From: an uncultured Chloroflexia bacterium
Lineage (GTDB): Bacteria > Chloroflexota > Dehalococcoidia > UBA2979
Assembly (NCBI GenBank): GCA_963728205.1
Contig: CAVSIV010000001.1
Coordinates: 160,001-224,000 of the forward strand
Direction: 5' to 3'
DNA: 64,000 bases
Each line of letters starts with the position of its first letter. Positions within the stretch are counted from its first letter, which is position 1. Below the pieces are notes generated by a model. It saw only the letters and a program-made list of their open reading frames with translations. It made no database searches and was not told the origin of the DNA. Of this stretch, positions 7,641-43,748 are shown piece by piece. Position numbers and translations under genes: made by a program.

Positions 7641-7763
7641 AAGCGGCGGCAAATACGCCGCCGATGCCGGCGCGGCCAGAAGGCCGCGATCTGTCGGCGG
7701 CATGTCTGCCGCCGCTTTGGGCGGGCCGGCCGCGCACGGCAGCCCCGAAGCCTGCCGCGCGCC
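7641..7763. repeat. Family A inverted pair (7641-7665, 7691-7720) plus family B unit (7735-7763)
   Basis: Same motifs as at 2278; between convergent stop codons. Confidence 0.85.
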
Positions 7764-8188
7764 TACCGGGCGGCGACGAACTCCTCGATCCGCTGCCGGA
7801 TTGCCTCGCGCACGCGGCGGAACGCCGCGAGACGTTCCTCCTCGTTGCCGCTCGCGGCGGCGGGGTCGGCGAAGCTCCAGTGCAGTTGCTCACGGCCGCC
7901 GGGGAAGAGCGGGCAGGCCTCGCGCGCCTGGTCGCAGACCGTGATCACGTAGTCCCACGGCTCGTCGAGGAAGCGGTCGAGGTGCTTCGAATCCGCGCCC
8001 GTGGCGTCGATGCCGACCTCGCGCAGCGCGGCGACGGTCAGCGGGTTGAGGCCGGCCGGCGCGGTGCCGGCCGAGCGCACCTCGAACGCGTCGTCGCCGA
8101 CGGCCCGGAGCAGCGCCTCGGCCATCTGCGACCGCGCCGAGTTGCCCGTGCAGAGAAAGAGGACGCGCGTCTTTGTGAGTGCCGGCAT
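7763..8188 (-). CDS. arsC: Arsenate reductase, LMW-PTPase fold
   Basis: FLCTGNSARSQMAE, VITVCDQAREACP, HWSFADP; ars context. Confidence 0.9.
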   Translation of the reverse strand: MPALTKTRVLFLCTGNSARSQMAEALLRAVGDDAFEVRSAGTAPAGLNPLTVAALREVGIDATGADSKHLDRFLDEPWDYVITVCDQAREACPLFPGGREQLHWSFADPAAASGNEEERLAAFRRVREAIRQRIEEFVAAR

Positions 8189-8197
8189 CGCGGCCCC

Positions 8198-9004
8198 TCA
8201 GGCTTCCGCGAGCGCGGTGCGCTCGTCGGCGGCAGTGAGCGTGGCGGAGCGCTCGGTGTCGAGCCCGCGGGCGCCGGCGATCAGGAGGTAGACGAGCCCG
8301 CCGACGAGCGCGCCGGCGATCGGGCCGACCCAGTACACCCAGTGGTCGGTCCACGTGCCGGAGAGGAGCGCCGGGCCGAATGACCGCGCCGGGTTCATCG
8401 ACGCGCCGGCGATGGGGCCGGAGAACGTCGCGGCGAGGGCGACGTAGCCACCGATGGCGATGGCGGCGGTCCCGGGCACCGCCCGCCGGTCGGTCGCCAG
8501 CGCCGCGATCACGAGCATGAGAAACGCCGTGATGATGCACTCGAGGCCGAGCGCCTCGCCCGCTCCGCCGCTCGGGATCGTCGCGCCGAGGTCCGCGACG
8601 TTGCCGAACAGCAGCCGGTGCGTGCCGCTCGCGCCGGCGGCGCCGACCAGCTGCGCGACGACGTAGCCGGGCACCCGCGCGCCGGGGAACTCGCCGGTCA
8701 GCCAGAACGCGATCGTGACGGCGGGGTTGATGTGCGCGCCCGAGATGTGGCCGAGCGCGTAGATGGCGGCCATCACCGCGAGCCCGAAGCTGAGCCCGAT
8801 GCCGAGCGTGCCGACGCCGCCCCCCGAGACGTGGTCGATCACCACCGCGCCCGGACCGGCGAAGACGAGCAGGAACGTGCCGAGCGCCTCGGCGACGTAC
8901 GCGGCGTACGGGTCGCCGAGCCGCGCGCGCGTCGCGAGCGGCGCCCTTCGCGCGGAGGGTGGCGGCGCCGCGGGGGGTGCGGTCTGCGCGGGCGCGGCAG
9001 GCAT
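8198..9004 (-). CDS. MIP-family aquaglyceroporin (probable arsenite channel)
   Basis: SGAHINPAVT and GASMNPARSFGP NPA motifs; between ars genes. Confidence 0.92.
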   Translation of the reverse strand: MPAAPAQTAPPAAPPPSARRAPLATRARLGDPYAAYVAEALGTFLLVFAGPGAVVIDHVSGGGVGTLGIGLSFGLAVMAAIYALGHISGAHINPAVTIAFWLTGEFPGARVPGYVVAQLVGAAGASGTHRLLFGNVADLGATIPSGGAGEALGLECIITAFLMLVIAALATDRRAVPGTAAIAIGGYVALAATFSGPIAGASMNPARSFGPALLSGTWTDHWVYWVGPIAGALVGGLVYLLIAGARGLDTERSATLTAADERTALAEA

Positions 9005-9040
9005 CGCGGCGTCTCCAGTTCGTCGCGCGGGGGCGCGTAG

Positions 9041-9277
9041 TCAGGACATGCGGTCGGCGGCGGCGCGCAGCCGGTCGCGTGCGAGACGCCGCGCGAAGAT
9101 CGGGACGTACTCCGTGTGCGGCGCGTCGCGGAAGACGTCGGCCGCCTCCTGGACGGCGCGGTAGACCGCCTCGCGGTCGAAGGTGTCGGAGAACTCCTCG
9201 GCGAGGCGCTCGGCCTCGTGGAGGATGCGGCGCGCCGGCCAGTCGGCGCGATGGACGGTCGTGCGCTCGGTGGTCAT
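9041..9277 (-). CDS. Small helical protein resembling the three-helix N-terminal domain of actinobacterial ArsC
   Basis: 78 aa, LAEEF...YVPIFARRLARDRL pattern; ATGA overlap with upstream gene. Confidence 0.7.
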   Translation of the reverse strand: MTTERTTVHRADWPARRILHEAERLAEEFSDTFDREAVYRAVQEAADVFRDAPHTEYVPIFARRLARDRLRAAADRMS

Positions 9278-10035
9278 GCGCCGGCACTCGAGGCGCGCCG
9301 GGGTGCGCGGCGTGACCGTTCGGCGCCGCTCACCACGGGCGCGAGCGCGGCGACGCGGCGACGCAGCGCCTGGTACGCCCGCTCGAAGGCGGCGGCGGTG
9401 CCGGCGCGGACGGGGTCCTCGATCGACCAGTGCAGCGTCGTAGGCCCGCCGGCGGCGACGTCCGCGCCCGCGGCCGGGTGCACCGCGAACTGCTCGTGCG
9501 CGCGGTCGCAGACGGTGACGACGAGGTCGGGTGCGCGACGCACGGCGTCGAGCGCGCGCGGGCGCGCGGCGGCGAGGTCGAGCCCGTGGCGCGCCGCCGT
9601 CGCGACGGTGCGCGGGTGGACGCGGTCGGCCGGGTGCGTGCCGGCGCTCTCGGCCGGCGTCGAGGAGGCGGCGTTCCACAGTGCGGCGGCCAGCTGCGAA
9701 CGCGCGGAGTTCGCGGTGCACACGAAGAGCACCGAGCGCGCGGCCAGGGTCGCGGCCGGCGTCTCAATCGCGTCGAGCGTCTCGGCGCGCAGCCGCAGGT
9801 AGCGGCGCCGCCGGTCGCCCGCCGACACCACGCGCTCGACGAGGCCGACGCGCTCGAGCACCTCGAGGTGGTGCGCGAGCAGGTTCGACTCGATGCCGAG
9901 CGCGCGCGCCAGGTCGGACGGCGAGCGGTCGGAGAGCGCGAGGGCATCGACGACGGCGAGGCGGTGCGGATCGCCCAGCGCGGCGTGGACGGCGGCGCGG
10001 CGGTCGCGGTCTGCGGAGACGGTGGTGTCGTTCAT
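9274..10035 (-). CDS. ArsR-family HTH fused to LMW-PTP/ArsC-like domain
   Basis: HAALGDPHRL, SNLLAHHLEVL HTH; FVCTANSARSQ; HWSIEDP. Confidence 0.88.
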   Translation of the reverse strand: MNDTTVSADRDRRAAVHAALGDPHRLAVVDALALSDRSPSDLARALGIESNLLAHHLEVLERVGLVERVVSAGDRRRRYLRLRAETLDAIETPAATLAARSVLFVCTANSARSQLAAALWNAASSTPAESAGTHPADRVHPRTVATAARHGLDLAAARPRALDAVRRAPDLVVTVCDRAHEQFAVHPAAGADVAAGGPTTLHWSIEDPVRAGTAAAFERAYQALRRRVAALAPVVSGAERSRRAPRRASSAGA

Positions 10036-10607: not shown

Positions 10608-11811
10608 TTGCACTTGTCCGTTCACCCCAAGCGCTCGCTGTTCTTGATCGCAGGCCTGCTCGCGGCCGCACTCATGCTGGGCGCATGCAGCAGCGGCTCC
10701 AGCACGCCGACTCCCGCCGCCACGACGGCGCCGGTGGCCACCTCGGCGGCGACCTCCGCCGGCACCTCCTCGGGGGGCGCCGTCTCGCCGCCCGCCGACA
10801 TCGGCAAGGGCGACAAGGCGCAGGTCACCGGTGCCGGCTCCTCGGCCCTGACCCCCTTCATCACCTACGCCGCGCAGAAGTACCAGCAGGGCGTCGCGCC
10901 GGGCGTCACCCTGAACTACCAGTCGATCGGCTCGGGCGGCGGCATCACGCAGTTCACCGCCAAGACCGTGGACTTCGGCGCGTCCGACGTTTACCTGAGC
11001 GACGACCAGGAAGCGAAGACCGTGGCGCGCCGTCCTCAACATCCCGATCATCCACTGGGCCGTCGCGATCACGTACAACCTGCCGGACGTCAACCAGGCG
11101 CTGAACTTCAGCCCGGACACGATCGCCGGCATCTACCTGGGCACGCATCAAGAAGTGGAACGACCCGGCGATCGCCGCGGACAACCCGGGCGTCGACCCT
11201 GCCCGACCTCGAATCACCGTCGTCCACCGCAGCGACGGCTCGGGCACGACCTACAACTTCACCGCGTTCCTGTCCGGGCGTCAGCGACGACTGGAAGACA
11301 AGGTCGGCGCCGGGACTTCCGTCGACTGGCCGACGGGCGTCGGCGGCAAGGGCAGCGAGGGCGTGACGGCGCAGGTCAAGCAGACGCCCGGCGCCATCGG
11401 CTACGTCGAGCTCTCGTACGCGCTGCAGAACAACCTGCCCGTGGCAGCCGTCAAGAACGCCGCCGGCAAGTTCATCAAGCCGACGCTCGACTCGACGACC
11501 GCCGCGGTCGTCGGCGCAGGTGCCCAACGCGCCGGCCGACCTGCGCTTCCTCATCGTCAACCCGCCGGCCGCCGCGGCCGACGCGTACCCGATCGGCGCC
11601 AGCACCTGGGTGCTGCTCTACAAGGACTACCCGGCCGACAAGCAGGCCGAGGTCAAGGCGATGGTCGACTTCCTCTGGTGGACCATCCACGACGGCCAGA
11701 AGCTCGCTGCTCGAGCGCGACTACTCGGCCATGGCGCCGAACCTCGTGACAAAGGCCGAGGGAGTGCTCAAGGCGATCACGGTCGGCGGGAAGCCCGTGC
11801 TCGCGCAGTAG
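10608..11811 (+). CDS. pstS: Phosphate ABC transporter substrate-binding lipoprotein; at least five frameshifts (assembly error or decay)
   Basis: Lipobox LGAC, GAGSS, YQSIGSGGGI, DFGASD, HRSDGSGTT, GAIGYVE, AYPI motifs spread over several frames. Confidence 0.85.
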
Positions 11812-11921: not shown

Positions 11922-12909
11922 TTGGCGACCATAGAGGGCACCCGGGTCCGTGTCCGCGAGGCGCTCGAGAGGTCGCCGGCTCGCGGTTCGGCGAACCGGT
12001 CTTCCGCACGGTCCTGTTCGCGGCGACGGTGCTGATCCTCGGCGACGCTCATCGGCCTCCTGTTCATCACTGATCGCCGACGCTCGCAGCGCGATGGCGC
12101 ACAACGGCTGGCGCTTCCTGTGGACCGCACGTGGGACCCCGTCCACGAGGTCTTCGGCGCGCTGCCCTCCTCTACGGCACGCGTCCTCACCGCCGTGACC
12201 GCGACTGTGCTCGCCACGCTGCTCGGCGTGGGCGTTGCGCTCTTTCTCGTGGAGATGGCGTCGCCGCTGGTCGCGCGGCCGGTCAGCTTCATGGTCGAGA
12301 TGCTGGCGGCGATCCCCAGCGTCGTGTACGGCCTGTGGGGCATCTTCGTCCTCGCGCCATGGCTGCGGACCTGGGTCGAGAAGCCGCTGCACGAGCCACC
12401 TCGGGTTCCTGCCGTTCTTCCCGGGCTACCCGATCGGCATCGGCTACCTGGCCGCCATCGTCGTGCTCACGGTGATGATCCTGCCCACCGTCGCGGCGGT
12501 GTCGCGCGACGTGATCGCGGCGGTGCCGCAGGCGCGAACGCGAGGCCGCGCTGGCGCTCGGCGCGACGCACTGGGAGACGATGCGGATGGCGGTGATCCC
12601 CTACGCGCGCGGCGGCATCGTGGGGGCGAGCATCCTCGGCCTCGCGCGCGGCGTCGGCGAAACGCTGGCGGTCGCGATGGTGATCGGCGGCGCGCCGAAC
12701 ATCACGCTCTCGCTCTTCAAGCCCGGGCTACACGATGGTCGGCGGTGATCGCGAACGAGTTCGCGGAAGCGACGACCGCGCTCTATCGCAACACGCTGAT
12801 CGAGGTCGGCCTGATCCTGTTCCTCATCACGCTCGCCATCAACATCGGCGCGCGCCTGCTCGTGTGGCGCGTGACGCACGGTCAGCGCTCCGGGGGGGTG
12901 GTCGCGTGA
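11922..12909 (+). CDS. pstC: Phosphate ABC transporter permease; several frameshifts
   Basis: EMLAAIPSVVYGLWG, MILPT, EAALALGAT, GETLAV, IANEFAEA segments in alternating frames; start approximate. Confidence 0.85.
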
Positions 12910-13775
12910 GCGCCTCCGGCTCGGCGCTGGGGCTCGAACGCCAGCTGCGCCGTCGTCGCATGGTCGACCGCGTGATGCGCGGGTTGATCTGGCTCGCGGC
13001 CGTGCTCGCGGTGCTCCCGCTCGTGCTGATCGTCGCGTACGTGGTGGTGAAGGGGATCCCGGCGGTGAACCTCGCACTGTTCACGCGCGACCCCAGCCCG
13101 CTGGGCGACTCCAGCGGAGGCATCCGGCCCGCGCTCGTCGGCAGCGTCTACATGGTCGGCCTGGGCACGCTGATCGGCGTGCCGATCGCGGTCGCCGCAG
13201 CCATCTACGTGCGCGAGTACGCCGGCGTCCGCTCGGCGATGTTCGTCCGCTTCCTGATCGACGTGCTCGCCGGCATCCCGACGATCATCGTCGGGCTCTT
13301 CATTTACGGCCTGATCGTGGTGCCGATGGGCGGGTTCAGCGCGCTCGCCGGGGCGGTCTCGCTCGCGATCATCCTCATGCCGATCACCGCGCGCGTGACC
13401 GATGAGATGCTCGGCGTCGTCCCGAACTCGATGCGCGAGGCCGCGTACGCGCTCGGCGTGCCGCGCTGGAAGACCATCGTGCGCATCGTGCTGCCGTCGG
13501 CGGCGAGCGGTATCGCGACGGGCATCGTCCTCAGCGTGGCGCGCATCGCCGGCGAGGCCGCGCCGCTGATCTTCACGGCGCTCGGCAACCAGATCACGAG
13601 TACCTCGCTGACGAAGCCGATCGACGCGCTCCCGCTGCGCATCTGGGTGTACGCCAGCGGGCCGTACCCGTCCTGGCACGACCAGGCGTGGGCGGCGTCG
13701 CTGGTGCTGGTCGGGCTCGTGCTCGTGTTCTCGCTGCTCGTACGGCTGGTGATCCAGCGCTCGCGCCGCGCGTAG
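12906..13775 (+). CDS. pstA: Phosphate ABC transporter permease
   Basis: [28 protein letters not shown]; GTGA overlap with pstC. Confidence 0.93.
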
Positions 13776-13815
13776 CGGCGCGGTGGACGCGGACAGGAAA
13801 CGGGGGACCGCAGCC

Positions 13816-14676
13816 ATGGCCGAGGCGCCGTCGAGCCACGCGTTCACGAGCGGCAGCTGGAACGACCTGTTCGAGCGCCAGCAGCCGCGCCGCGTGCACG
13901 AGCAGGGCCCCGCGATCCGGGTCGAGGGGCTCTCCGCCTACTACGGCGCCCGGCGGGCGATCGGCGATCTCACCCTGGACATCGCCGCCAACACGGTCAC
14001 GGCGATCATCGGTCCGTCCGGCTGCGGCAAATCCACGTTCGTGCGCTGCCTCAACCGCATGCACGAGGCCGTCCCCGGCGCGCGCGCCGAGGGCCGGGTC
14101 CTGATCGACGGGCAGGACATCTATGCGCCCGGCGTCGCCGTCAGCAAGATCCGCATGCGCGTCGGCATGGTGTTCCAGCGCCCGAACCCGTTTCCGACGA
14201 TGTCGATCATGGACAACGCGGTGTCCGGGCTGAAGCTCGCCGGCGTGCGCGACCGCTCGCTGCTGCACACCGTCGGCGAGTCGGCGCTGCGTCGCGCCGC
14301 GCTGTGGGACGAGGTGCGAGACAAGCTCGACTCCCCCGCCGGCACCCTCTCCGGCGGCCAGCAGCAGCGGCTGTGCATCGCGCGCACGATCGCGGTGGAG
14401 CCGGAGGTCGTGCTCTTCGACGAGCCCGCGTCGGCGCTCGACCCGATCTCGACGCTGAAGATCGAGGAGCTGATGCAGGAGCTGGCCGCGAGCTTCACGA
14501 TCGTCGTGGTCACGCACAACATGCAGCAGGCCGCGCGCGTCTCCGACCAGACCGCGTTCATGCTCGCGGACGACGAGCGCGTCGGCCGTCTCGTCGAGTA
14601 CGGCCCCACGCAGCAGATGTTCACCGCCCCCACCGACCGCCGGACCGAGGACTACATCACCGGCCGCTTCGGCTAG
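13816..14676 (+). CDS. pstB: Phosphate ABC transporter ATPase
   Basis: [42 protein letters not shown]. Confidence 0.95.
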
Positions 14677-14873: not shown

Positions 14874-15029
14874 ACGGCCCGCGGGGGGCCCCGGGATAGT
14901 GGGGAGGTGGCGGCTCCGCTCGGCGGATCCGTCGCGGCCGGGGCGTCCTCTCCCCATGCAGCGCCGCCGTCCGCCGGCCCGGCCACGCTTGCCGCGGCCC
15001 CGACCAGCGTCCGATTGAGGGGATTGCAG

Positions 15030-15938
15030 ATGAACGACCGACGCGGCCAGGCACCGGTCGCCGAGCGCCCCGCTCCGCAGGACGCGCCCGCCGCCGGGGG
15101 AGCGCGGAACGTCGCAGCCGGTCCCGCCGTCCACCCCGCGCGGCCCGACGCGAAGCACAGCGGCCGCCGCGTCACGCTGCACGTCGAGCATCTCTCCGCC
15201 TGGTACGGATCGAAGCTCGCCGTGTCCGACGTCTCCATCGACTTCTACGCAAACTCGATCACCGCGCTGATCGGCCCGTCCGGCTGCGGCAAGTCGACGT
15301 TCATCCGCTGCCTCAACCGCATGCACGAAGTGAACCCCGGGGCGCGCGCCGAGGGGCGCGTCCTGCTCGAAGGCGACGACATCTACGCCTCCGGCTCCGA
15401 TCCCACCCGCGTGCGCCAGCGCATCGGCATGGTCTTCCAGAAGCCGAACCCGTTCCCGGCGATGTCGATCGCCGACAACGTCGCCGCCGGCCTACGCTTC
15501 AAGAACATCACCGCGAAGTCCGAGGTCGAGGACCGCGTCGAGGAGGCGCTGAAGGGCGCCGCGCTCTGGGACGAGGTCAAGAACGACCTGAAGAAGCCCG
15601 GCATCGCGCTCTCCGGCGGCCAGCAGCAGCGCCTCTGCATCGCCCGGACGATCGCCGTGGAGCCCGAGGTCGTGCTGATGGACGAGCCGTGCTCGGCGCT
15701 CGACCCGCTCGCCACCCTCAAGATCGAGGACCTGATGGCGCAGCTCGCCGAGCGGTTCACGATCGTGATCGTCACCCACAACCTGCAGCAGGCCGCGCGC
15801 GTCGCCGAGTTCACCGGCTTCTTCCTCACCGAGGACGACGGCGCCGGCCACCTCATCGAGCACGCCCCCACGGGCGACCTCTTCACGAGCCCGCGCGACC
15901 GCCGCACCGAGGACTTCGTCACCGGCCGGTTCGGGTAA
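15030..15938 (+). CDS. pstB: Phosphate ABC transporter ATPase, second paralog
   Basis: [38 protein letters not shown]; GAGGGG RBS. Confidence 0.95.
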
Positions 15939-15940
15939 CT

Positions 15941-16177
15941 CCTCGGCGCGCGGCAGGCTTCAGGCCTGCCGTGTCTCGTGAGTGACTCCGCAGACCCGAG
16001 GCGGCCACCTCTCGCGGTGGGGCGGGGCGCAAGGCATGAATGCCACCCAAAGCGGCGGCAGATATGCCGCCGACAGGACGCGGACGCAGTCCGCGGCTGG
16101 CGCCGCGCTTCTGTCGGCGGCATATCTGCCGCCGCTTTGACTTCCCGACGAGACCTGAAGCCTGCCGCGCGCCGAGG
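15941..16177. repeat. Family B 24-bp perfect inverted arms enclosing a family A full unit (16048-16139)
   Basis: CCTCGGCGCGCGGCAGGCTTCAGG at 15941-15964 and exact reverse complement at 16154-16177. Confidence 0.9.
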
Positions 16178-16256
16178 GGCGGACAATCGCCCCTTAACAT
16201 GGGTCCGAGACCATACCGTCATGCGGCGGGAACCGAACCAGCTGAGGGGACCATCC

Positions 16257-17864
16257 ATGGTCCGGCTGTCCGCGCCGTCCACACGCGCCCATCGCCACCA
16301 CTCGGTCCCGGATCGCGCCACGCGCCCCGACCGCGGGCCGGCGTCGCCGGGAGATGCCCTGTTGCCAGCCCCGCCCCGCGTCGCGGTGATCGACCTCGGC
16401 TCCAACTCGGGCCGCGTGATCGTCGTCGAGCCGCACCCGCTGGGCTACCTCCACATCGTCGACGAGGCGCGCTCGCCGCTGGAGCTGACCCGCGCCATCG
16501 ACGCGCAGTCGCGCCTCGCGCCGGAGGCGGCCGAGCGCGTGCTCGCCGCGATGGCCGAGTTCGTCGCCATCGCGCGCGGCGCCGGCTGCGCCGACATCCA
16601 TGTCGTCGGCACCGCGGCGCTGCGCCGCGCGACCAACGCCGGCGCGCTGATGGACGAGATCCGGCGCCGCTACGACGTCGCGGTCGAGATCGTCGACGGC
16701 GCGACCGAGGCGCGCTACGCGTTCGTCGGCGCCGCGTACTCGCTGCCCGTGGAGAGCGGCCTGCTGATCGACATCGGCGGCGGCAGCCTGGAGCTCGTGC
16801 GCTTCGATCACCGCGAGCTCACCGGCACATGGTCGTTCCCCTTCGGCGCGCTGCGCCTGACCGACGACCTCCTGGCCGGCGACCCGCCGTCGCAGGAGGC
16901 GCTCGCCGCGCTCGCCGTCACCGTGAGCGCCGGGCTCGCGGAGGCCGGAGTGGCGCCGCTGGTGCCGGGCGAGGAGCTCGTCGGCACGGGCGGCACCATC
17001 CGCAACCTCGCCAAGATCGACACGCGCCGCCGCGACTACCCCATCGGCCGCCTGCACGGCTACGTGCTGCGCGGGAGCCGGCTGCGCAAGATCTCGTCGT
17101 CGCTCGCGGCCATGACGCGTGAGAAGCGCGAGGGCGTGCCCGGCCTGAACAGCGCGCGCGCCGAGTCGATCGTCGCCGGCGCGGCGGCGCTCGCCGCCAC
17201 GATGCGCCATGCCGGCGCGCACGAGGTCGTCGTCTCCGGCCAGGGACTGCGCGAGGGGGTCGCGCGGCGCGCGACGGCCGACGGCCTGCCGCCGCCGGCG
17301 CTCGTGCGGCGCGCGTCGCTGCAGGCGCTCACCGAGCGCCTGAGCGGCTGGGACGAGGCGCGCGCCGAGCGCCGCGCCGCGCTCGCGCTCGACCTCGCCG
17401 CCGCGCTCGCGCCCGAGCTCGACGCCACGTTGCGCGAGCTGCTCGGACACGCCGCCGCGCTGCTCGACGTCGGCGCCGCCATCGACTTCTACAACCGCCA
17501 CCGCGAGACCGCCGCAATCGTGCTGCGCACGGACCTGGCGGGGTTCTCGCACCGCCACCTCGCCACGCTCGCCGCCATCATCCAGCTCGCCGAGCGCCCG
17601 GGCTTCGCGCTCGCCGGGCTGCGCCCACTGCTGGCGCCGTCCGACGCGCCGCCGCTCACGCGCGCCGCCACCGTGCTCGCCCTCGCCGACGAGATCGTGC
17701 GCCGCTGCCCGCCCACCGAGGCCCTGGACGCCACCTGGCGGCTCGACGGAAAGGTGCTGCGCGTGAACCTCCCCTGGCACCCGGAGTGGGCGCCGGCCGC
17801 GCTCTCGCGCCGCGTGGACGACGCGCTCGGCCTCCGGCTCCTGGTCGAGGCCGATGATGCGTAA
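16257..17864 (+). CDS. ppx: Exopolyphosphatase / pppGpp phosphohydrolase (Ppx/GppA)
   Basis: VIDLGSNSGR, GTAALR, EARY, IDIGGGSLE, GLREG and C-terminal HD-like region; start uncertain. Confidence 0.9.
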   Translation: MVRLSAPSTRAHRHHSVPDRATRPDRGPASPGDALLPAPPRVAVIDLGSNSGRVIVVEPHPLGYLHIVDEARSPLELTRAIDAQSRLAPEAAERVLAAMAEFVAIARGAGCADIHVVGTAALRRATNAGALMDEIRRRYDVAVEIVDGATEARYAFVGAAYSLPVESGLLIDIGGGSLELVRFDHRELTGTWSFPFGALRLTDDLLAGDPPSQEALAALAVTVSAGLAEAGVAPLVPGEELVGTGGTIRNLAKIDTRRRDYPIGRLHGYVLRGSRLRKISSSLAAMTREKREGVPGLNSARAESIVAGAAALAATMRHAGAHEVVVSGQGLREGVARRATADGLPPPALVRRASLQALTERLSGWDEARAERRAALALDLAAALAPELDATLRELLGHAAALLDVGAAIDFYNRHRETAAIVLRTDLAGFSHRHLATLAAIIQLAERPGFALAGLRPLLAPSDAPPLTRAATVLALADEIVRRCPPTEALDATWRLDGKVLRVNLPWHPEWAPAALSRRVDDALGLRLLVEADDA

Positions 17865-18624
17865 CCCCTTCAGCCCCGACGGCCGCGAGCTCCCCGGCCG
17901 CCTGATCGTCGTCGAGGGCATCGACGGCTCGGGCAAGAGCACGCAGCTCGACCTGCTGCACAAGTGGCTGCTCAGCCAGGGCTACCTGGTTGTGTTCACC
18001 GAGTGGAACTCGTCGCCGATCGTGAAGTCGACCACGCGCCGCGGGAAGCGCCGCAAGCTCCTCACGCCGATGTCGTTCAGCCTGATCCACGCCGCGGACT
18101 TTTCGAGCCGCGTCTACGCGCAGGTGCTGCCCGCGCTCGAGGCCGGCGCGATCGTGCTCGCCGACCGCTACGTCTACACGGCGTTCGCGCGCGACGCCGC
18201 GCGCGGCGTGAACCGCCGCTGGCTGCGCGACGCCTACTCGTTCGCCGTCCCGCCGACCGCGGCCTTCTACTTCTCGGTGCCGCTCGACGAGGCCGTGAAC
18301 CGGATCCTCGCCGGCCGGGCACAGCTCAAGTACTACGAGGCCGGCATGGACCTCGGCCTCAGCGAGGACATCGTCGAGTCGTTCCGCATCTTCCAGGGCC
18401 GCATCCTCGACGAGTACGCGCAGCTCACGGAGGAGTTCGGCCTGATCACGGTCGACGCCACGCAGACCGTCGTGTCCCAGCAGCGACTGGTGCGCGAGAC
18501 GGTCGCGCCGCTGCTCGAGGGGGTGTCGCGCCGCGAAGGCGGCAGCTTCATCGAGGCGCTGCAGCGCGCGCAGCTGCAGGGCCGCTACCTGCCGAACCCG
18601 GAGCGCATGGAGGTGGCGGAGTGA
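17854..18624 (+). CDS. Thymidylate-kinase-like protein, intact P-loop (candidate PPK3-type catalytic subunit)
   Basis: VEGIDGSGKST, ADRY; TEWNSS and YYEAGMD segments atypical of canonical Tmk. Confidence 0.8.
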   Translation: MMRNPFSPDGRELPGRLIVVEGIDGSGKSTQLDLLHKWLLSQGYLVVFTEWNSSPIVKSTTRRGKRRKLLTPMSFSLIHAADFSSRVYAQVLPALEAGAIVLADRYVYTAFARDAARGVNRRWLRDAYSFAVPPTAAFYFSVPLDEAVNRILAGRAQLKYYEAGMDLGLSEDIVESFRIFQGRILDEYAQLTEEFGLITVDATQTVVSQQRLVRETVAPLLEGVSRREGGSFIEALQRAQLQGRYLPNPERMEVAE

Positions 18625-19343
18625 CGGACCTGCGCTTCTACGGCGAGCGCCCGCCGGGCATCGAGGGCGACCACGTCCCCGGCCGGCTGATCGTGCTCGA
18701 GGGCACCGACGGCGTCGGGCGCTCCACGCAGGTCTCGCTGCTCAAGGAGTGGCTCGAGGACCGCGGCTACGCCGTCGTCGACACCGGGCTGCGGCGGTCG
18801 ATGCTCGCCGGCCCCGGCATCGACCGTGCGAAGCGCGGCCACACGCTCGACGCCATCACGCTCAACCTGCTCTACGCGACCGACTTCTGGGACCGCCAGG
18901 AGCGGTCGATCTTTCCCGCCCTGCGCGCCGGGATGGTCGCGCTCGTCGACCGCTACGTGTTCTCGCTGATGGCGCGCGCGACCGTGCGCGGCGTGCCGGC
19001 CGACTGGATCGAACGGCTCTACGGCTTCGCGCTGATCCCCGACCGCGTGATCTACCTCGACATCGGCGTGAAGGAGCTCGCCCCGCGCGTGCTCGCCCGC
19101 GGCGGGTTCGACTACTGGGAGTCCGGCCAGGACTTCCTGCGCGGCCCCGGTCTCTACGAGACGTTCGTCGAGTACCAGTCGGTGCTGCTCGACGAGTACC
19201 GGCGCCTCGCCGACAAGCACCACTTCTCGGTGGTCGACGCGCGCGGCAGCGTCGCCGACGTGTTCGACGCGCTGCGCGTCGAGGTTGGCGCCGTGGTCGA
19301 GGACATGGCGCTGGACGTCCCCGAGCCCGCCGCCGCGCCGTAG
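18621..19343 (+). CDS. Thymidylate-kinase-like protein, P-loop Lys replaced by Arg (candidate partner subunit)
   Basis: LEGTDGVGRST, VDRY, DYWESGQD; GTGA overlap with the upstream paralog. Confidence 0.8.
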   Translation: MTDLRFYGERPPGIEGDHVPGRLIVLEGTDGVGRSTQVSLLKEWLEDRGYAVVDTGLRRSMLAGPGIDRAKRGHTLDAITLNLLYATDFWDRQERSIFPALRAGMVALVDRYVFSLMARATVRGVPADWIERLYGFALIPDRVIYLDIGVKELAPRVLARGGFDYWESGQDFLRGPGLYETFVEYQSVLLDEYRRLADKHHFSVVDARGSVADVFDALRVEVGAVVEDMALDVPEPAAAP

Positions 19344-19375
19344 GCGCCGCGAGCGGACCGGCACCGCGAACCCTC

Positions 19376-19551
19376 GCAAGCGGCGGCAGACACGCCGCCG
19401 ATGCCACGCGGGCGCCCGCCCGCGTCCGGGCGCGCGGCAGGCTTCCAGGCCTGCCGTGTGCAGTGCCTCCCCTCTCGCCGCGTGAGGTGGCCACCTCCAC
19501 GCCCGCGGAGCCGGCCACGACCCACGGCGGGCCTGAAGCCCGCCGCGCGCC
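19376..19551. repeat. Single family A unit (19376-19403) plus family B inverted pair (19429-19458, 19523-19551)
   Basis: Motif matches; between convergent genes. Confidence 0.85.
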
Positions 19552-19581
19552 GCTCGTGCCGTTCCTCTTGCGTCCCGAGAG

Positions 19582-20085
19582 CTACCGCGCCATCCGCCGC
19601 AGCGCCGAGGGCTGGAGCAGCCAGACGAGCGTGGCGCCGCCGGCGCACGGGCCGTCCGGGAGGTCGAACGCGGCGACCGCGCCCTTGCGCCACAACGTCT
19701 GGGCCCGCTGCGCGTCGCCGGCGAGCAGGTACGAGGCCAGCTCGTGCAGGTGCGGCTCGTGGCCGACGGCGGCGACGACCGGCGCAGCGGCGTGCGCGGC
19801 CAGCGCCGCGACGTTCTCCTCCGGCCCGGCGCCGGAGCGCAGGCCGTCGACGAGCACGGGCGCCGGCCAGCGCGCGACCTGGTGCAGCAGGTCCGCGGTC
19901 GCGCGCGTGCGCTCGAACGGGCTCGCCAGCAGCACGTCGACCATCGGGACGAGGCGGCGCAGGCCGCGCGCGGCGACGCGGAAGCGGCGCACTCCGCGCT
20001 CGGTGAGCGGCCGCGTGGCGTCGTCCGGCCAGCGCACCGGGTCGCGGTCGAACGCAGTGGCGTGGCGGACGAGGTAGAGCCGCAT
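19582..20085 (-). CDS. sixA: SixA-type phosphohistidine phosphatase
   Basis: LYLVRHA, RPLT, SPFERTRATA, VGHEP motifs. Confidence 0.88.
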   Translation of the reverse strand: MRLYLVRHATAFDRDPVRWPDDATRPLTERGVRRFRVAARGLRRLVPMVDVLLASPFERTRATADLLHQVARWPAPVLVDGLRSGAGPEENVAALAAHAAAPVVAAVGHEPHLHELASYLLAGDAQRAQTLWRKGAVAAFDLPDGPCAGGATLVWLLQPSALRRMAR

Positions 20086-20105
20086 GCCGGCGAGTCCCTT
20101 CGCGG

Positions 20106-21713
20106 CTAGCCGGCGCGCCGGCGCTCGCGACGCATGCGTCGCGCGAGCGGCTTCCACCGCTTGCGCGCGCGCCGGAGCGCGGCGGGGAAGCGTGCGCGGC
20201 GGTCGGCGATCGCCGCGCGGAACTCGTCCTGCGCCGCCCGCACGGCCGCCACCGTCTCGGGGCGCAGCCGCTCGCCCTCCGCGGCGATCAGCGCATCGAG
20301 GTCCGCGATCGCGACGACCGCGTCCTGGTGCTCGCCGAGCACGTCCTGCAGCGCGACGAGCGCCGATTGGAACCGCCGCGCCGGCTTGCCGTACAGCCCG
20401 GCGACGAACTCCGTCGCGTAGCGCGCACGCTTCGCGCGGATGCGCACCGCGTGATAGGCGGCGTCGGCCGCGCGCGGTGCAAGGCGCTTTCCCGGCTCCG
20501 CCACGCGCCGCCAGTGTCGCGCGACAATCTTCGGCGCGACGAGACGCGCGTGCCGTCGCGCCGCGGCGCGCGTCACCCGCGGGCGCAGGAGCGCCGCCGT
20601 CGCATTCGCGATCAGCGCCGCGTAGCGCGGCGACTCGAGCGTCGCCAGCATCCGGGCGCGGGCGGCCTCGCGGCGGCCGGCGAGCAGCGCGGACAGGACG
20701 GGGTCGATGCTGCCGTCGGGTGCGCGCCACGCGGCGAAGCGCCCCATCTGCACGTCGAGGTCGCGCAGCGGCGACAGCGACTCGTTCACCCAGCGCAGTT
20801 CGGCGTCGAGCGGTGCGAGCGCCGGGTCGGTCACGTCGGCGAACAGGTCGATCGCGGTGCGCATGCGGCGCACCGCCACGCGCATGTCGTGCAGCGGCTC
20901 CGCGTCGTCGCCGAGGCGCGTCCCCGGCTCCGCCGCCAGCAGGGCGGCGAGCTGCCGGCGCAGCGCGTCGTGCGCGAGCTCGGCGATGCGCATCCCGGCG
21001 TGTGTCGCCTCGCGCGGCGCCGGGCGCGGGCCGGGCGGGTGCAGCCCGGCGACGGCGAGCCCGCACTCGAACTTCGACCGCCCGGCGGCGACGAGCGCGC
21101 ACGCCTCGCGCATCGCCGACACGTACAGCGCGAGCAGCGGCTCGGCGTCCTCGCGCAGCGCCTCGACCTCGACGCGCAGCAGCGGCTCGCCGCAGGCGTC
21201 GCCCGCGACGCACGTCGAGCGGTCGAGCGCGACCTCGGCCACCGCGTGGCCGTCGGCGTCGTGGAGGAGATAACGACGGCGCGCGGTGCGCACGGTGAAC
21301 AGCTCGCGCAGGGGCAGGTCGCCGACGAGCGCGGCGATGCGCGATCCCACGGGCCCCGGCGCGCAGCGCAGCATGGCGGGGTTGCCGGCGGCGGGGCCGT
21401 CGAGCGGCTCGTTCCACTCGCGGCGACGTCGCAGCCCGGCGTCGCCGCCCCCCGTCGACTTCAGCGTGGCCTCGACGCCGCCCAGCGACGCGCGCATGCG
21501 CAGCGTGTAGCCGGCGCGCTCGACGCGCCAGTCGGGCGTGTCCAGGTAGCGGTCGCGATGCTCTCGCTCGCCCAGTGCGTCGGCGCGCAGCGCGGCGCCC
21601 TGCTCGACCCAGCGGGCGACGCGGTCGAGATCGGGCGTATCGAACTGCCACTCGATCTCGAGTGGCACGGCCGCCGTACCCGGGTCAGGCGTCTGTGGAG
21701 AGTCGCTGTCCAT
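20106..21713 (-). CDS. CYTH plus CHAD domain protein (polyphosphate-binding)
   Basis: N-terminal EIEWQF, YLDTPD, EVALD, SKFE; CHAD motifs LHDMRVAVRRMR, LRDLDV, HAVRIRAKRARY, LQDVLGEHQD. Confidence 0.9.
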   Translation of the reverse strand: MDSDSPQTPDPGTAAVPLEIEWQFDTPDLDRVARWVEQGAALRADALGEREHRDRYLDTPDWRVERAGYTLRMRASLGGVEATLKSTGGGDAGLRRRREWNEPLDGPAAGNPAMLRCAPGPVGSRIAALVGDLPLRELFTVRTARRRYLLHDADGHAVAEVALDRSTCVAGDACGEPLLRVEVEALREDAEPLLALYVSAMREACALVAAGRSKFECGLAVAGLHPPGPRPAPREATHAGMRIAELAHDALRRQLAALLAAEPGTRLGDDAEPLHDMRVAVRRMRTAIDLFADVTDPALAPLDAELRWVNESLSPLRDLDVQMGRFAAWRAPDGSIDPVLSALLAGRREAARARMLATLESPRYAALIANATAALLRPRVTRAAARRHARLVAPKIVARHWRRVAEPGKRLAPRAADAAYHAVRIRAKRARYATEFVAGLYGKPARRFQSALVALQDVLGEHQDAVVAIADLDALIAAEGERLRPETVAAVRAAQDEFRAAIADRRARFPAALRRARKRWKPLARRMRRERRRAG

Positions 21714-21793
21714 CGGAATCGCAATTGTAGACTGATCGCAAGCGGCCATGTTCGGCGTTGACTGAATGCTGGAATGAAATGCCGGGGGCGACG

Positions 21794-22276
21794 ATGGCTC
21801 ACTTCGTGCTCGCGGTCGACGTCTTTCGCTTCTCGCCGGGTGACCAGGCGACGATGCTGGCGCGCATGCTCGTCGCCGTCGTCGCGGGCGGCATCCTCGG
21901 GTGGGAGCGCAAGCGCGCGGGCCACCGCGCCGGGATCCGCACCCTGGCGGTCGTTGCCATCGGCTCCGCGATCTTCACGCTCGCCTCGATCTACGGGTTC
22001 GGCACGAGCGGGGCGAACACCTCGAACGACCCGTCGCGCGTCGCGGCGCAGGTCGCGACCGGCGTCGGGTTCATCGGCGCCGGGACGATCGTGGTGCTGG
22101 GCCGCACGGTGCACGGGCTGACGACGGCGGCCACGATCTGGGTGGCGGCCGCGGTCGGCATGGCCGCCGGCGCGGGCATGTACGTCGTGGCGCTGGCCGG
22201 CGCGGTGCTCACGACGGTCGTGCTCGAGTTCCTCCCGCACGGCGACGACGACGAGCGCGTGCCCGATGGGCCCTAG
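21794..22276 (+). CDS. MgtC/SapB family membrane protein
   Basis: GWER, AGIRT, DPSRVAAQVATGVGFIGAG, GLTTAATIW. Confidence 0.92.
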   Translation: MAHFVLAVDVFRFSPGDQATMLARMLVAVVAGGILGWERKRAGHRAGIRTLAVVAIGSAIFTLASIYGFGTSGANTSNDPSRVAAQVATGVGFIGAGTIVVLGRTVHGLTTAATIWVAAAVGMAAGAGMYVVALAGAVLTTVVLEFLPHGDDDERVPDGP

Positions 22277-41312: not shown

Positions 41313-41349
41313 TTGACGCGAACAGGCGTTCTGTATAGAACATCTGTGC
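41313..41349 (+). promoter_or_regulatory. Promoter with two LexA (GAAC-N4-GTTC type) boxes
   Basis: TTGACG at 41313; GAACAGGCGTTC (41320) and GAACATCTGTGC (41338) upstream of a repair helicase. Confidence 0.75.
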
Positions 41350-41392
41350 GCGGATCCACGCGCCGGGCGGGCGGGGGCGAGGGACGGCAACG

Positions 41393-43748
41393 ATGACGGT
41401 GGCCCGGGCGAAGCACGCCCTGATCGCGGCAATCGAGGAGATCGGCGGCACGGCCGAGTGGCGCACGCTCCCCCCGCGCCCGGCGCGCTATGGACGGTGG
41501 CCGGACGGCCTCGACAGGCGCGTCGTGGATGCGCTCGCCCGGCGCGGCATCGCGCACCCCTACACGCACCAGCAGACCGCTGTCGGGCACGCGCTCGCGG
41601 GCCGTGACCAGGTCGTGGTCACGCCGACGGCATCGGGCAAGACGCTCTGCTACACGGTCCCGGTGCTGCAGGCGATCCTCGACGACCCGTCGGCGCGCGC
41701 CCTCTACCTCTTCCCCACGAAGGCGCTCGCGCAGGACCAGCTGCACGAGCTGCACGCGCTGGTCGGCGAGGCGGCCATCGACGTGAAGACGTTCACGTAC
41801 GACGGGGACACGCCGCCCGCGAACCGGCGCGCGGTGCGCACCGCCGGGCACGTCGTGATCACGAACCCGGACATGCTGCACGCCGCGATCCTCCCGCATC
41901 ACACGAAGTGGGTGCGGCTGTTCGAGAACCTGCGGTACGTCGTGATCGACGAGATGCACACCTACCGCGGCGTCTTCGGCTCGCACGTCGCCAACGTGCT
42001 GCGCCGGCTGCTGCGGATCTGCCGCTTCTACGGCTCCGACCCCGTCTTCATCTGCTGCTCGGCCACGATCGCGAACCCGGGCGACCTGGCGCACGCGCTC
42101 ACCGGTCGCGACGTCGCCGTGGTCGCGGAAGACGGTGCGCCGTCGGGCGAGCGCACGGTCGTCCTCTACAACCCGCCCGTCGTGAACCGGGAGCTCGGCA
42201 TTCGCCGGGGCGTGCTTGCCTCCACCACGGATTCTCGCAGCCGCGCTGCAGGCCGAGGGCGTGCAGAGCATCGTGTTCGCCGGCTCCCGCACCAACGTCG
42301 AGCTGCTCACGCAGTACCTGCGCGACGCGCGGGGCGGCCGCCGGCGCGATCCCTCTGCGCCGGAGCCGGTGCGGGGCTATCGCTCGGGCTACCTGCCGGC
42401 CGAGCGGCGCGCGATCGAGGCCGGCCTGCGCGACGGCGACGTGCGCACCGTCGTCTCCACCAACGCACTCGAGCTCGGCGTCGACATCGGCGGACTCGAC
42501 GCTGCGGTGCTCGCCGGCTTCCCCGGCACGGTCGCCAGCTTCCGCCAGCAGGTCGGCCGCGCCGGCCGCCGCGCCGGCGAGTCGCTCGCGGTGCTCGCCG
42601 CCGGCTCGTCCCCGCTCGACCAGTACGCGGTCGCGCACCCCGAGTATCTCTTCGGCGAGAGCGTGGAGTCGGGGCTGGTGAACCCGGACAACGCGCTGAT
42701 CGCCGCCGAGCACATGAAGTGCGCCGTCTTCGAGCTGCCGCTCGAGGAGGCGGAGCTCCCGGCGCTCGGCCCGGCCGCGCCGCTCGCGCTCGAGGCGCTC
42801 GAGGAGCACGCGCTCGTCCACCGCGCGCGCGGCCGCGCCTACTGGACGAGCGAGGCCTACCCCGCGCAGGAAATCTCGCTGCGCCGCGGCGCGGAGCAGA
42901 ACGTCGTCATCGTCGACCAGGGCCCGCCGGCACGCGTGATCGGCGAGGTCGATCGACCGTCGGCGATGACGCTGCTGCACGACGAGGCCATCTACATGCA
43001 CGACGGCCGCCAGTACCACGTCGACCGCCTCGACTGGGAGGAGCTCAAGGCGTACGTGCGGCCGGTCGACGTGGACTACTACACCGACGCCCAGCTGGCG
43101 GTGGACCTGAAGGTGATCGAGGAGTTCGCGACGCGGGACGCCCCGGCGCTGCACGGATTCGGCGGCGTCGCCGTGACGTATCTCGCGACGTTGTTCAAGA
43201 AGCTGAAGCTCGAGACGCGCGAGAACATCGGCTGGGGGAAGATCCGCCTGCCGCAGGACGACCTGCATACGGAGGCGTTCTGGCTCGCGCTGCCCGACGC
43301 GCTGATCGCCGGCTGGTCTCGCGCGGCACTCGAGGGGGCGCTCGCGGGCCTCGGCTCGCTGCTCGTGCACGTCGCGCCGCTGCTGCTCATGATCGACCCG
43401 CGCGATCTGCACCTCGCGGCGCAGGTCAAGTCGCCGCACACCGGCCGGCCAACCGCGTTCCTGTGGGAGGCGGTGCCCGGCGGTGTCGGGCTCAGCCAGC
43501 ACCTCTTCGATCACACCGACGACCTGGTACGCATGGCCCGCGCCATCGTCGACGCCTGCCCGTGCGCCGACGGCTGCCCGGGCTGCGTCGGCCCGCCGGC
43601 CGCGCCCGGCGTCGGCGTGAAGTCGCTCGTGCGCGAGGTCTTCGCGTCGCTCGCTGAGGAGGCGACGGCGTGCGCCCCCGCTCCGGGGGCCGTCGCGCGC
43701 CGGCCCGCCGTGCGCGAGCCGGCCGGTGCGCCCGTTGCCGGGGTCTGA
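41393..43748 (+). CDS. mrfA: DEAD/DEAH-box helicase with DUF1998 (MrfA/YprA); frameshift near 42225
   Basis: TPTASGKT, DEMH, SAT, TNALELGVDIG, QQVGRAGR, C-terminal CPCADGCPGC. Confidence 0.88.

Follow-up and report, generated by a model that had tools for sequence, protein, structure and literature searches.

The stretch analysed here, referred to as the window, comprises 64,000 nucleotides of contig CAVSIV010000001.1 from an uncultured Chloroflexia bacterium, and the subject of this study is a pair of adjacent genes within it, encoding two thymidylate-kinase-like (TMK-like) proteins that probably are the catalytic (c) and non-catalytic (r) subunits of a polyphosphate (polyP) kinase of the recently described PPK3 type. 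As the window has a GC content of about 74% and the majority of its long open reading frames are spurious, reading frames were picked by their GC content at the third codon position and then checked with Pfam and NCBIfam. The locus was found to hold a gene for an exopolyphosphatase-family protein (ppx) followed by the two TMK-like genes, with two genes on the opposite strand converging upon them, as follows.

16257..17864, plus strand: ppx, a Ppx/GppA-family exopolyphosphatase with domain III (Pfam Ppx-GppA 2.4e-54, Ppx-GppA_III 8.6e-09)
17854..18624, plus strand: TMK-like 1, putative cPPK3 of 256 aa, with Walker A GIDGSGKST, DRY and the lid arginine (Pfam Thymidylate_kin 5e-18)
18621..19343, plus strand: TMK-like 2, putative rPPK3 of 240 aa, with Walker A GTDGVGRST (Lys to Arg) and with DRY kept (Pfam Thymidylate_kin 3.4e-18)
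19582..20085, minus strand: SixA-like histidine phosphatase (Pfam His_Phos_1 2.5e-07; NCBIfam sixA 57 bits, under the cut-off of 74.5)
20106..21749, minus strand: CYTH-CHAD protein, a triphosphate-tunnel domain together with a CHAD domain (Pfam CHAD 3.6e-55, CYTH 7.6e-15)

The three genes overlap one another: ppx, which ends with TAA (17862-17864), shares 11 nt with TMK-like 1, which opens with ATG at 17854, and TMK-like 1, which ends with TGA, shares 4 nt (GTGA) with TMK-like 2, which opens with GTG at 18621. On the minus strand the CYTH-CHAD gene is followed 20 nt further on by the SixA-like gene, both converging on the ppx-c-r unit. An original prediction, made for this DNA from its letters only, had described the successive overlaps, the two P-loops, the convergence with sixA and CYTH-CHAD genes downstream of pst genes and the lack of ppk1 and ppk2 in the window; the overlaps and P-loops were confirmed in the coordinates and translations, the convergent arrangement by the Pfam and NCBIfam matches, and a scan of 75 open reading frame (ORF) translations from the window gave no match to the Pfam domains of PPK1 or PPK2. 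Neither was any further TMK-like ORF detected (E≤1) when all six-frame ORFs of at least 60 aa in the window were searched with c, r and canonical thymidylate kinase (Tmk) profiles. The ORF of ppx spans 15978-17864 on the plus strand and its start is uncertain, being either the ATG at 16257 or a GTG at about 16377; its product scored 250.3 bits with the NCBIfam exopolyphosphatase model TIGR03706, under the cut-off of 307, and also matched the GppA model weakly.

Judged by their sequences, neither of the two TMK-like proteins is a canonical dTMP kinase, because both fell below the cut-off of the NCBIfam dTMP-kinase equivalog TIGR00041 (74.9 bits for TMK-like 1 and 73.9 bits for TMK-like 2, with a cut-off at 83.25), matched the 2plr/5h70 structures much better than any canonical enzyme and formed separate clades in the trees given below. 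When compared with all sequences in the PDB, the top match of both proteins was the group 2plr/4nzy/4rzx/5h70, at 2.4e-48 and 167.7 bits for TMK-like 1 (best canonical Tmk 53.6 bits) and at 5.3e-34 and 121 bits for TMK-like 2 (best canonical Tmk 43.9 bits). These entries represent STK_15430, the cPPK3 homologue of Sulfurisphaera tokodaii (PMC12995831). The two proteins of the window are 36% identical to each other (E 4e-45), and their closest named homologues, with best identities of 71% for TMK-like 1 and 81% for TMK-like 2, were labelled as Dehalococcoidia, Chloroflexi/Chloroflexota or Tepidiformaceae. Named homologues of GcvPA, which is also encoded in the window, bear labels of these kinds as well, with a best identity of 78%, placing the source in a Chloroflexota lineage. 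A plasmid search in PLSDB using TMK-like 1 returned 21 matching records, all below 60% identity, of which 14 were annotated as tmk or dTMP kinase, two as 'Thymidylate kinase' and five as hypothetical or not at all. The original prediction had also invoked PPK2 as a relevant relative; this part did not hold, as neither protein matched the PPK2 domain (Pfam PF03976) at E≤0.01, whereupon PPK2 kinship of the pair was rejected, and PPK2 has been placed outside the dTMPK superfamily (PMC12995831).

The enzyme with which the pair has to be compared is SaPPK3 of Sulfolobus acidocaldarius, an alpha2beta2 heteromer of Saci_2019 (cPPK3) and Saci_2020 (rPPK3) (Höfmann et al., J Biol Chem 2026, PMC12995831). 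SaPPK3 is reversible and strongly favours formation of ATP from polyP and ADP, with the direction in Sulfolobus being set by the ATP/ADP ratio; its ATP-dependent reaction proceeds at 0.25 U/mg, and Saci_2020 alone is without enzymatic activity (PMC12995831). The PPK3 clade was there described as consisting mainly of bacterial dTMPK paralogues, from 'a few taxonomically scattered bacteria', whose gene neighbourhoods include PPX, SixA/PhoE, CHAD, NUDIX, PstC and PstS (Fig. 5/S19), and the predicted PPK3 operons, with a single exception, carry a c as well as an r gene (PMC12995831). CHAD-domain proteins are also among those typically associated with PPK1 and PPK2 (PMC12995831).

To place the two proteins, relatives were gathered by word-indexed protein searches, by an exhaustive search of cluster representatives and by a scan of GTDB species genomes. 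The search of cluster representatives (50% identity) gave 8247 clusters at E≤1e-3 and 317 at E≤1e-30. The GTDB scan, with a c-type alignment headed by the Sulfolobaceae-like protein P0392 (307.5 bits to 2plr) as query, gave at least 599 stretches with at least 455 confirmed relatives, from which 80 loci were kept, ranked by their likeness to that query and being a sample rather than a census. Of these 80 loci, 59 were bacterial and spread over no fewer than 15 named phyla, 19 were archaeal and two were unassigned; one of them, from Metallosphaera javensis (L001), was the only Sulfolobaceae locus and served as reference for that family, and the genome of the window itself was not among the 80. 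The TMK-like ORFs at these loci were sorted by means of profiles for c and r that had been derived from close homologues of the window proteins, and six annotated canonical Tmks, from E. coli, B. subtilis, Agrobacterium, Streptomyces, Collinsella and Salinibaculum, five of them taken from the PLSDB matches, were used as outgroup.

In a quick tree of 164 rows, the 81 c rows (support 85), the 77 r rows (97) and the six Tmk rows (99) each fell on one side of a branch. A careful tree of 68 rows separated the 62 c and r rows from the six Tmks with support 100/99, and resolved r (31 rows) at 97/97 and c (31 rows) at 90/88. The phylogeny that had been suggested as a check of the original prediction thereby placed TMK-like 1 in the cPPK3 clade, where it was sister to one c protein of Anaerolineales in the careful tree (100/98), and TMK-like 2 in the rPPK3 clade, inside the matching set of ten rows (99/86), with neither of them grouping with canonical Tmk. 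The same ten lineages, the window counted, form a group among the c rows as well as among the r rows, so that c and r seem to move together as a pair. The c and r proteins of Metallosphaera were also found in the c and r clades, respectively, and its r scored 105.2 with the r profile versus 64.6 with the c profile.

Motifs were counted by alignment column in 81 c, 77 r and six Tmk rows, and invariant columns were taken from c and r alignments of 65 sequences each. The Walker-A lysine was present in 81/81 c and 6/6 canonical Tmk rows and was arginine in 77/77 r rows, Metallosphaera included. At the corresponding residue of TMK-like 2, R34, arginine was likewise found in all 65 rows of the r alignment (A3) and in 120/120 close homologues. 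The change of this lysine to arginine is, on the strength of these alignments, a general hallmark of r subunits, and it finds no mention in the passages and legends consulted of Höfmann et al., in either the journal or the preprint version (PMC12995831). In TMK-like 1, K28, D104-R105-Y106 and the lid arginine R150 all stand in columns that are invariant among c. It was also seen that c is the more constrained of the two subunits, with 36 invariant columns versus 16 in r. The lid arginine (R156 in TMK-like 2, invariant) is kept in r together with R119/R123 and DRY, in at least 76 of the 77 r rows.

Two columns separate the pair from canonical enzymes. The arginine of the canonical T-R-E-P motif, present in 6/6 Tmks, is replaced by glutamate in 96% of c, inside an invariant W-N-S (TEWNSS in the window), and the column of E. 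coli R78 holds phenylalanine in 99% of c and 92% of r, being F83 in TMK-like 1. We take both columns to be dTMP-binding residues of Tmk. That the dTMP-binding residues of dTMPKs are not conserved in PPK3s has been noted for the published set (PMC12995831), as has a positively charged polyP cleft of the c subunit. Four basic residues, R86, R155, K159 and R214, were 94-100% conserved in c and all present in TMK-like 1, and they probably line a polyP-binding cleft of c. The same columns in r hold Q (56%), variable residues, D (87%) and R (48%), and TMK-like 2 has G161 and D164 at the columns of the c-specific R155 and K159.

The C-terminus of TMK-like 1 is furthermore extended by a tail of some 35 aa (residues ~222-256; window 18520-18621) with a conserved '...L.G-R-Y-L/V...' motif, which was found in 102 of 117 close homologues and in one of the 80 GTDB loci (L079, the sister of TMK-like 1). 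The tail is absent from archaeal c and lies outside the predicted c-r interface described below.

The c gene was directly followed by the r gene on the same strand in 77 of the 80 loci, and a chance adjacency of two TMK-like genes was rejected on the basis of this conservation. Of the three exceptions, L061 is truncated by the end of its contig; the other two, L014 and L035, come from a single Thermoproteota metagenome-assembled genome. In that genome two c-type genes (L014:3500-4240 and L035:4246-4938) each lie next to a ppx gene, and no r-type ORF was detectable at L014 or L035, the only uncut exceptions to the c-then-r order among the 80 loci. An overlap of 4 nt was seen in 27 of the 77 c-r pairs, a count that is approximate as starts were set by a longest-ORF rule. 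Neighbours within ±8 kb were sought using profiles from the proteins of the window, giving counts that are lower bounds on account of divergent SixA and CHAD proteins and of loci at contig ends. A ppx gene was found within this distance at 56 of the 80 loci; it immediately flanked the c-r pair at 38, and at 24 it was upstream on the same strand, as in the window. CYTH/CHAD genes were found at 39/80 loci, SixA-like genes at 28/80, pstA at 11/80 and pstB at 17/80, with at least one of these five kinds of neighbour, ppx included, at 63/80.

Natural fusions of c with r were found in five proteins (P0004, P0005, P0007, P0241 and P0323), and in three others (P0252, P0255 and P0261) two TMK-like domains were joined to an HD/Ppx domain III. 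Further relatives of the c subunit were fused to NUDIX, to SPX together with DUF2252, to MFS together with APH/DUF2252, or to an inorganic-pyrophosphatase domain. Fusion-type relatives also include P0312, P0369, P0298, P0322, P0335, P0327, P0328, P0315, P0350, P0345, P0279 and P0270, and the largest fusion relative, of 2575 aa, also has an ADP-ribosyltransferase domain.

A complex of TMK-like 1 with TMK-like 2 was modelled at 1:1 with an alignment of 65 rows per chain and with three controls, as the prediction of the heterocomplex had also been proposed as a check. The c+r model scored 0.85 (runs of 0.85, 0.85 and 0.87), with the best control at 0.00; the mark used for a pass is attained by 116 of the 157 solved complexes and, among 215 mismatched pairs, by 2. 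[quoted passage not shown] The predicted interface is made by residues 54-89 and 117-130 of c and by residues 62-94 and 126-136 of r, which we take to be the surface of the canonical Tmk homodimer. The model supports binding of c to r without proving it.

We give a probability of about 80% to TMK-like 1 and TMK-like 2 being the catalytic and non-catalytic subunits, respectively, of a PPK3 polyP kinase, translationally coupled to the exopolyphosphatase gene. This assignment draws on homology, clade membership, motifs, synteny, fusions and the passing complex model, and the two-subunit polyP kinase that the original prediction had proposed is in this way supported in silico; we infer the substrate, which way the reaction runs in vivo, the subunit ratio and that r is inactive. 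According to such a model, ppx, c and r would be co-translated as one unit. The two kinase-like proteins would then assemble by the surface with which canonical Tmks form dimers, probably as alpha2beta2 by analogy with the S. acidocaldarius enzyme. The c subunit would bind ADP or ATP at its P-loop and polyP along the basic cleft, carrying out the reaction polyP(n) + ADP <-> polyP(n-1) + ATP, and r, the paralogue with the Walker-A arginine, would bind c and raise its activity, as in SaPPK3. Ppx would trim polyP to inorganic phosphate and CHAD would be a polyP-associated module, with CYTH and the SixA-like protein as recurring partners. The Ppx, CYTH-CHAD, SixA-like and Pst genes would thereby provide a context of degradation, polyP binding and phosphate supply. 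A role of the pair in polyP synthesis is not assured, because SaPPK3 strongly favours the reaction from polyP and ADP to ATP (PMC12995831).

Several observations weigh against this interpretation. The r protein of Metallosphaera sits on a very long branch (4.3-5.0), making its own placement less certain, and the pass of the complex model may reflect memory of solved Tmk homodimers, 2plr included. No assay of a bacterial PPK3 member was found in the literature searched, where the other 'PPK3' papers appeared, by title and abstract, to be unrelated enzyme-cascade studies. In TMK-like 2, two of the four c-type basic positions also hold arginine (R92 for R86 and R219 for R214). The DRX arginine, finally, is kept in 76 of 77 r rows, including TMK-like 2 (D110-R111-Y112), so that r might bind nucleotide or even be active. 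The inactivity of r has been ascribed to loss of this very arginine, which is lost in Saci_2020 and STK_15420 (PMC12995831). As the sole r row without it in our alignment was that of Metallosphaera (DGY), the loss looks specific to Sulfolobaceae and not family-defining, which suggests that the published explanation of r inactivity does not generalise.

Among the alternatives to a PPK3 assignment, it is highly improbable that the pair represents two ordinary, duplicated dTMP kinases lying beside phosphate genes by chance. Such a view would agree with the Pfam Thymidylate_kin matches of both proteins (5e-18 and 3.4e-18), with the names 'dTMP kinase' or 'thymidylate kinase' that homologues bear in public sources and with the first description of the S. 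tokodaii homologue 2plr as a thymidylate kinase, as given by the title of ref. 28 and a preprint passage (PMC12995831). However, both proteins are below the equivalog cut-off and split from six canonical Tmks at 100/99, in keeping with the claim of the original prediction that they are not dTMP kinases; the residues at the T-R-E-P and E. coli R78 columns are replaced, one copy has a Walker-A Lys-to-Arg change that is invariant across the r clade, and the c-then-r order is kept in 77/80 loci with polyP neighbours in 63/80. A TMK-fold kinase acting on a substrate other than polyP, such as another nucleotide, an alarmone or a small phosphorylated metabolite, and linked to ppx only via a shared phosphate response, is also improbable. 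The Ppx/GppA-family enzymes do hydrolyse pppGpp as well, and the weak NCBIfam matches of Ppx to both the exopolyphosphatase and GppA models are compatible with this; the fusions of relatives to NUDIX, inorganic-pyrophosphatase, SPX and MFS domains would fit a general phosphate or nucleotide metabolism, and the literature holds no assay of a bacterial member that we could find. Yet the clades are shared with the Metallosphaera pair, whose S. acidocaldarius counterpart interconverts polyP/ADP and ATP (PMC12995831), CHAD-domain neighbours occur at 39/80 loci, and the invariant c-specific basic residues fit a polyanion cleft.

There is likewise only a small chance that both subunits are catalytic and divide the work, for example with one converting AMP to ADP and the other ADP to ATP, like a two-domain PPK2. 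What speaks for this is the retention by TMK-like 2 of DRY, the lid R156 and R119/R123, as in at least 76 of the 77 r rows, with the DRX arginine being lost only in the Sulfolobaceae r. Set against it are the Walker-A arginine of 77/77 r rows and 120/120 close homologues, a change that in P-loop kinases usually abolishes phosphoryl transfer, the lack of the c-specific R155 and K159 in r and the lower conservation of r (16 versus 36 invariant columns), as well as the finding that Saci_2020 alone has no activity (PMC12995831). Returning to PPK3 as the favoured assignment, it could be carried further, in that the Walker-A Lys-to-Arg change and not the DRX loss would define r, that r would in most lineages, this bacterium included, be a nucleotide- or polyP-binding pseudokinase sensing the ATP/ADP ratio and gating c instead of an inert scaffold, and that PPK3 would constitute a major family of polyP kinases in phyla of soils and sediments, for example Acidobacteriota, Verrucomicrobiota, Chloroflexota and Planctomycetota; this broader proposal, built on the sequence comparisons, we consider possible but doubtful. 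It is unlikely that PPK3 would be the sole polyP kinase of the host genome, because PPK3-positive Chloroflexota relatives in Data S1 also carry PPK2 (PMC12995831).

The region upstream of ppx holds a phosphate-uptake (pst) gene cluster, having the following parts.

10836..11747, plus strand: pstS, broken, in three reading frames (PstS of L059 aligns in frames 2, 3, 1, 2)
12057..12870, plus strand: pstC, broken, in three reading frames (PstC of L044, L052 and L059 align in frames 2, 3, 1, 3)
12906..13775, plus strand: pstA, phosphate ABC transporter permease, intact (NCBIfam TIGR00974 3e-85, 285.7 bits with a cut-off of 193.45)
13783..14676, plus strand: pstB copy 1 (TIGR00972 365.8 bits with a cut-off of 343.2)
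14907..15938, plus strand: pstB copy 2 (TIGR00972 362.0 bits with a cut-off of 343.2)

For pstS, positions 1-67, 181-235 and 247-292 of the NCBIfam model TIGR00975 were spread over three different ORFs, and for pstC the pieces of TIGR02138 were split between two ORFs. Both genes show at least three frame changes each, within a region of lower GC content (0.708), and pstA, both pstB, ppx and the kinase pair are intact. Either the two genes are decaying as pseudogenes or the assembly carries a run of indel errors here. In the original prediction the locus was seen as a complete module for uptake, synthesis, binding and degradation, of which the uptake part is not intact in this assembly. The two full-length pstB genes lie in tandem, both scoring above the PstB cut-off, with an inverted repeat pair (14693/14772) between them, and the real start of copy 2 is probably further downstream than 14907, because the TIGR00972 profile match opens only at residue 91.

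That repeat pair belongs to a family of 20-nt palindromes, CGGCGGCATATCTGCCGCCG, with 35 strand-matches in the window at up to three mismatches versus 0.04 expected. Copies were located at 2281, 2358, 6125, 6187, 7644, 7695, 10088, 10150, 14693, 14772, 16053, 16115, 19381, 30258, 30284, 34933, 35051, 40026, 40088, 63689 and 63742, mostly as inverted pairs 26-118 bp apart that lie between genes or operons, and the repeat resembles repetitive extragenic palindromic (REP) sequences and bacterial interspersed mosaic elements (BIME) or miniature inverted-repeat transposable elements (MITE). Copies are found on both sides of the ppx-c-r unit:

16053..16134, no strand assigned: inverted repeat pair just upstream of ppx, forming a terminator-like hairpin
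19381..19400, no strand assigned: single repeat copy, 38 nt past the rPPK3 stop

A scan of 15850-21900 for promoters gave no promoter-like site, and one for terminators in the same region gave two terminator-like sites with 1.0 expected, which is uninformative, one of the hairpins being a member of the palindromic repeat.

Directly upstream of the pst genes there is also an arsenic-resistance-like trio of minus-strand genes (7763-10035), composed of the following.

7763-8188, minus strand: low-molecular-weight phosphatase/ArsC-like gene
8198-9004, minus strand: MIP channel gene
9274-10035, minus strand: HTH_20-LMWPc fusion gene

Arsenate is a phosphate analogue, and the position of the trio next to the pst genes may be meaningful. 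On the other side of the locus, an MgtC-family gene (21758-22276) adjoins the CYTH-CHAD gene in divergent orientation; an MgtC homologue was near the kinase pair at one of the 80 loci (L024), and its association with the pair is probably incidental. Elsewhere in the window, a helicase gene with DEAD-box, Helicase_C and MrfA-Zn-binding domains (41339-43748) looks frame-split, with DEAD in the ORF 41339-43654 and Helicase_C and MZB in 42186-43748.

PPK3 was biochemically defined only in 2026, and in no more than one thermoacidophilic archaeon (PMC12995831). A mesophilic-looking bacterial operon having ppx, c and r intact is a ready candidate for a first assay of a bacterial PPK3. Should the pair be active, the way in which polyP capacity is read from genomes would change, as surveys based on PPK1 and PPK2 miss genes annotated as 'dTMP kinase', for example in the phosphorus-cycling communities of soil and wastewater. 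The Walker-A lysine or arginine offers a simple means to tell c from r. As far as the window is concerned, an annotation has been corrected and no discovery made; what is added here is the universal Walker-A Lys-to-Arg change in the r proteins examined, the restriction of the DRX loss to Sulfolobaceae, with one r examined from that family, and the wide bacterial spread.

With regards to that spread, four of the 82 Chloroflexota rows viewed in Data S1 were PPK3-positive, all four with PPK2 and two also with PPK1, and none of 38 Dehalococcoidia rows and neither of two Tepidiformia rows was positive (PMC12995831). Bacterial PPK3 operons with the same neighbours had already been predicted, and the locus is probably a further member, in a lineage that is absent from the PPK3-positive rows of Data S1. 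The spread of PPK3 among bacteria goes well beyond 'a few', as seen from the at least 455 relatives, the 59 bacterial loci among 80 from at least 15 named phyla and the 317 clusters at E≤1e-30.

Compared with canonical Tmk (EC 2.7.4.9), the pair shares the fold family (Pfam PF02223), the P-loop, DRY and the lid arginine, but differs in being a putative heteromeric pair with one subunit carrying the Walker-A arginine, in its polyP gene neighbourhood and in its separate clade. A two-domain class II PPK2 is, like PPK3, a P-loop kinase acting on polyP and nucleotides with one active and one inactive module, but has the ADP and polyP sites swapped (PMC12995831). As for the Sulfolobaceae systems, the gene order ppx, c, r is common to SaPPK3, Metallosphaera L001 and the window, the c subunits of SaPPK3 and STK_15430 have an intact Walker A and DRY like TMK-like 1, the Metallosphaera r has the Walker-A arginine of TMK-like 2, and SaPPK3 has SixA-like and CHAD neighbours and is a heteromer, as is predicted for the window. 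Unlike these archaeal systems, the window comes from a bacterial host (Chloroflexota), with identities to the Metallosphaera proteins of about 39% for TMK-like 1 (to c) and about 31% for TMK-like 2 (to r); the DRX arginine that is missing from Saci_2020 and STK_15420 is kept in TMK-like 2, and TMK-like 1 has the G-R-Y-L tail of about 35 aa that archaeal c proteins lack. The locus corresponds exactly to the predicted bacterial PPK3 operons already published, made up of dTMPK paralogues together with PPX, SixA, CHAD and PstC/PstS and encoding both c and r (PMC12995831).

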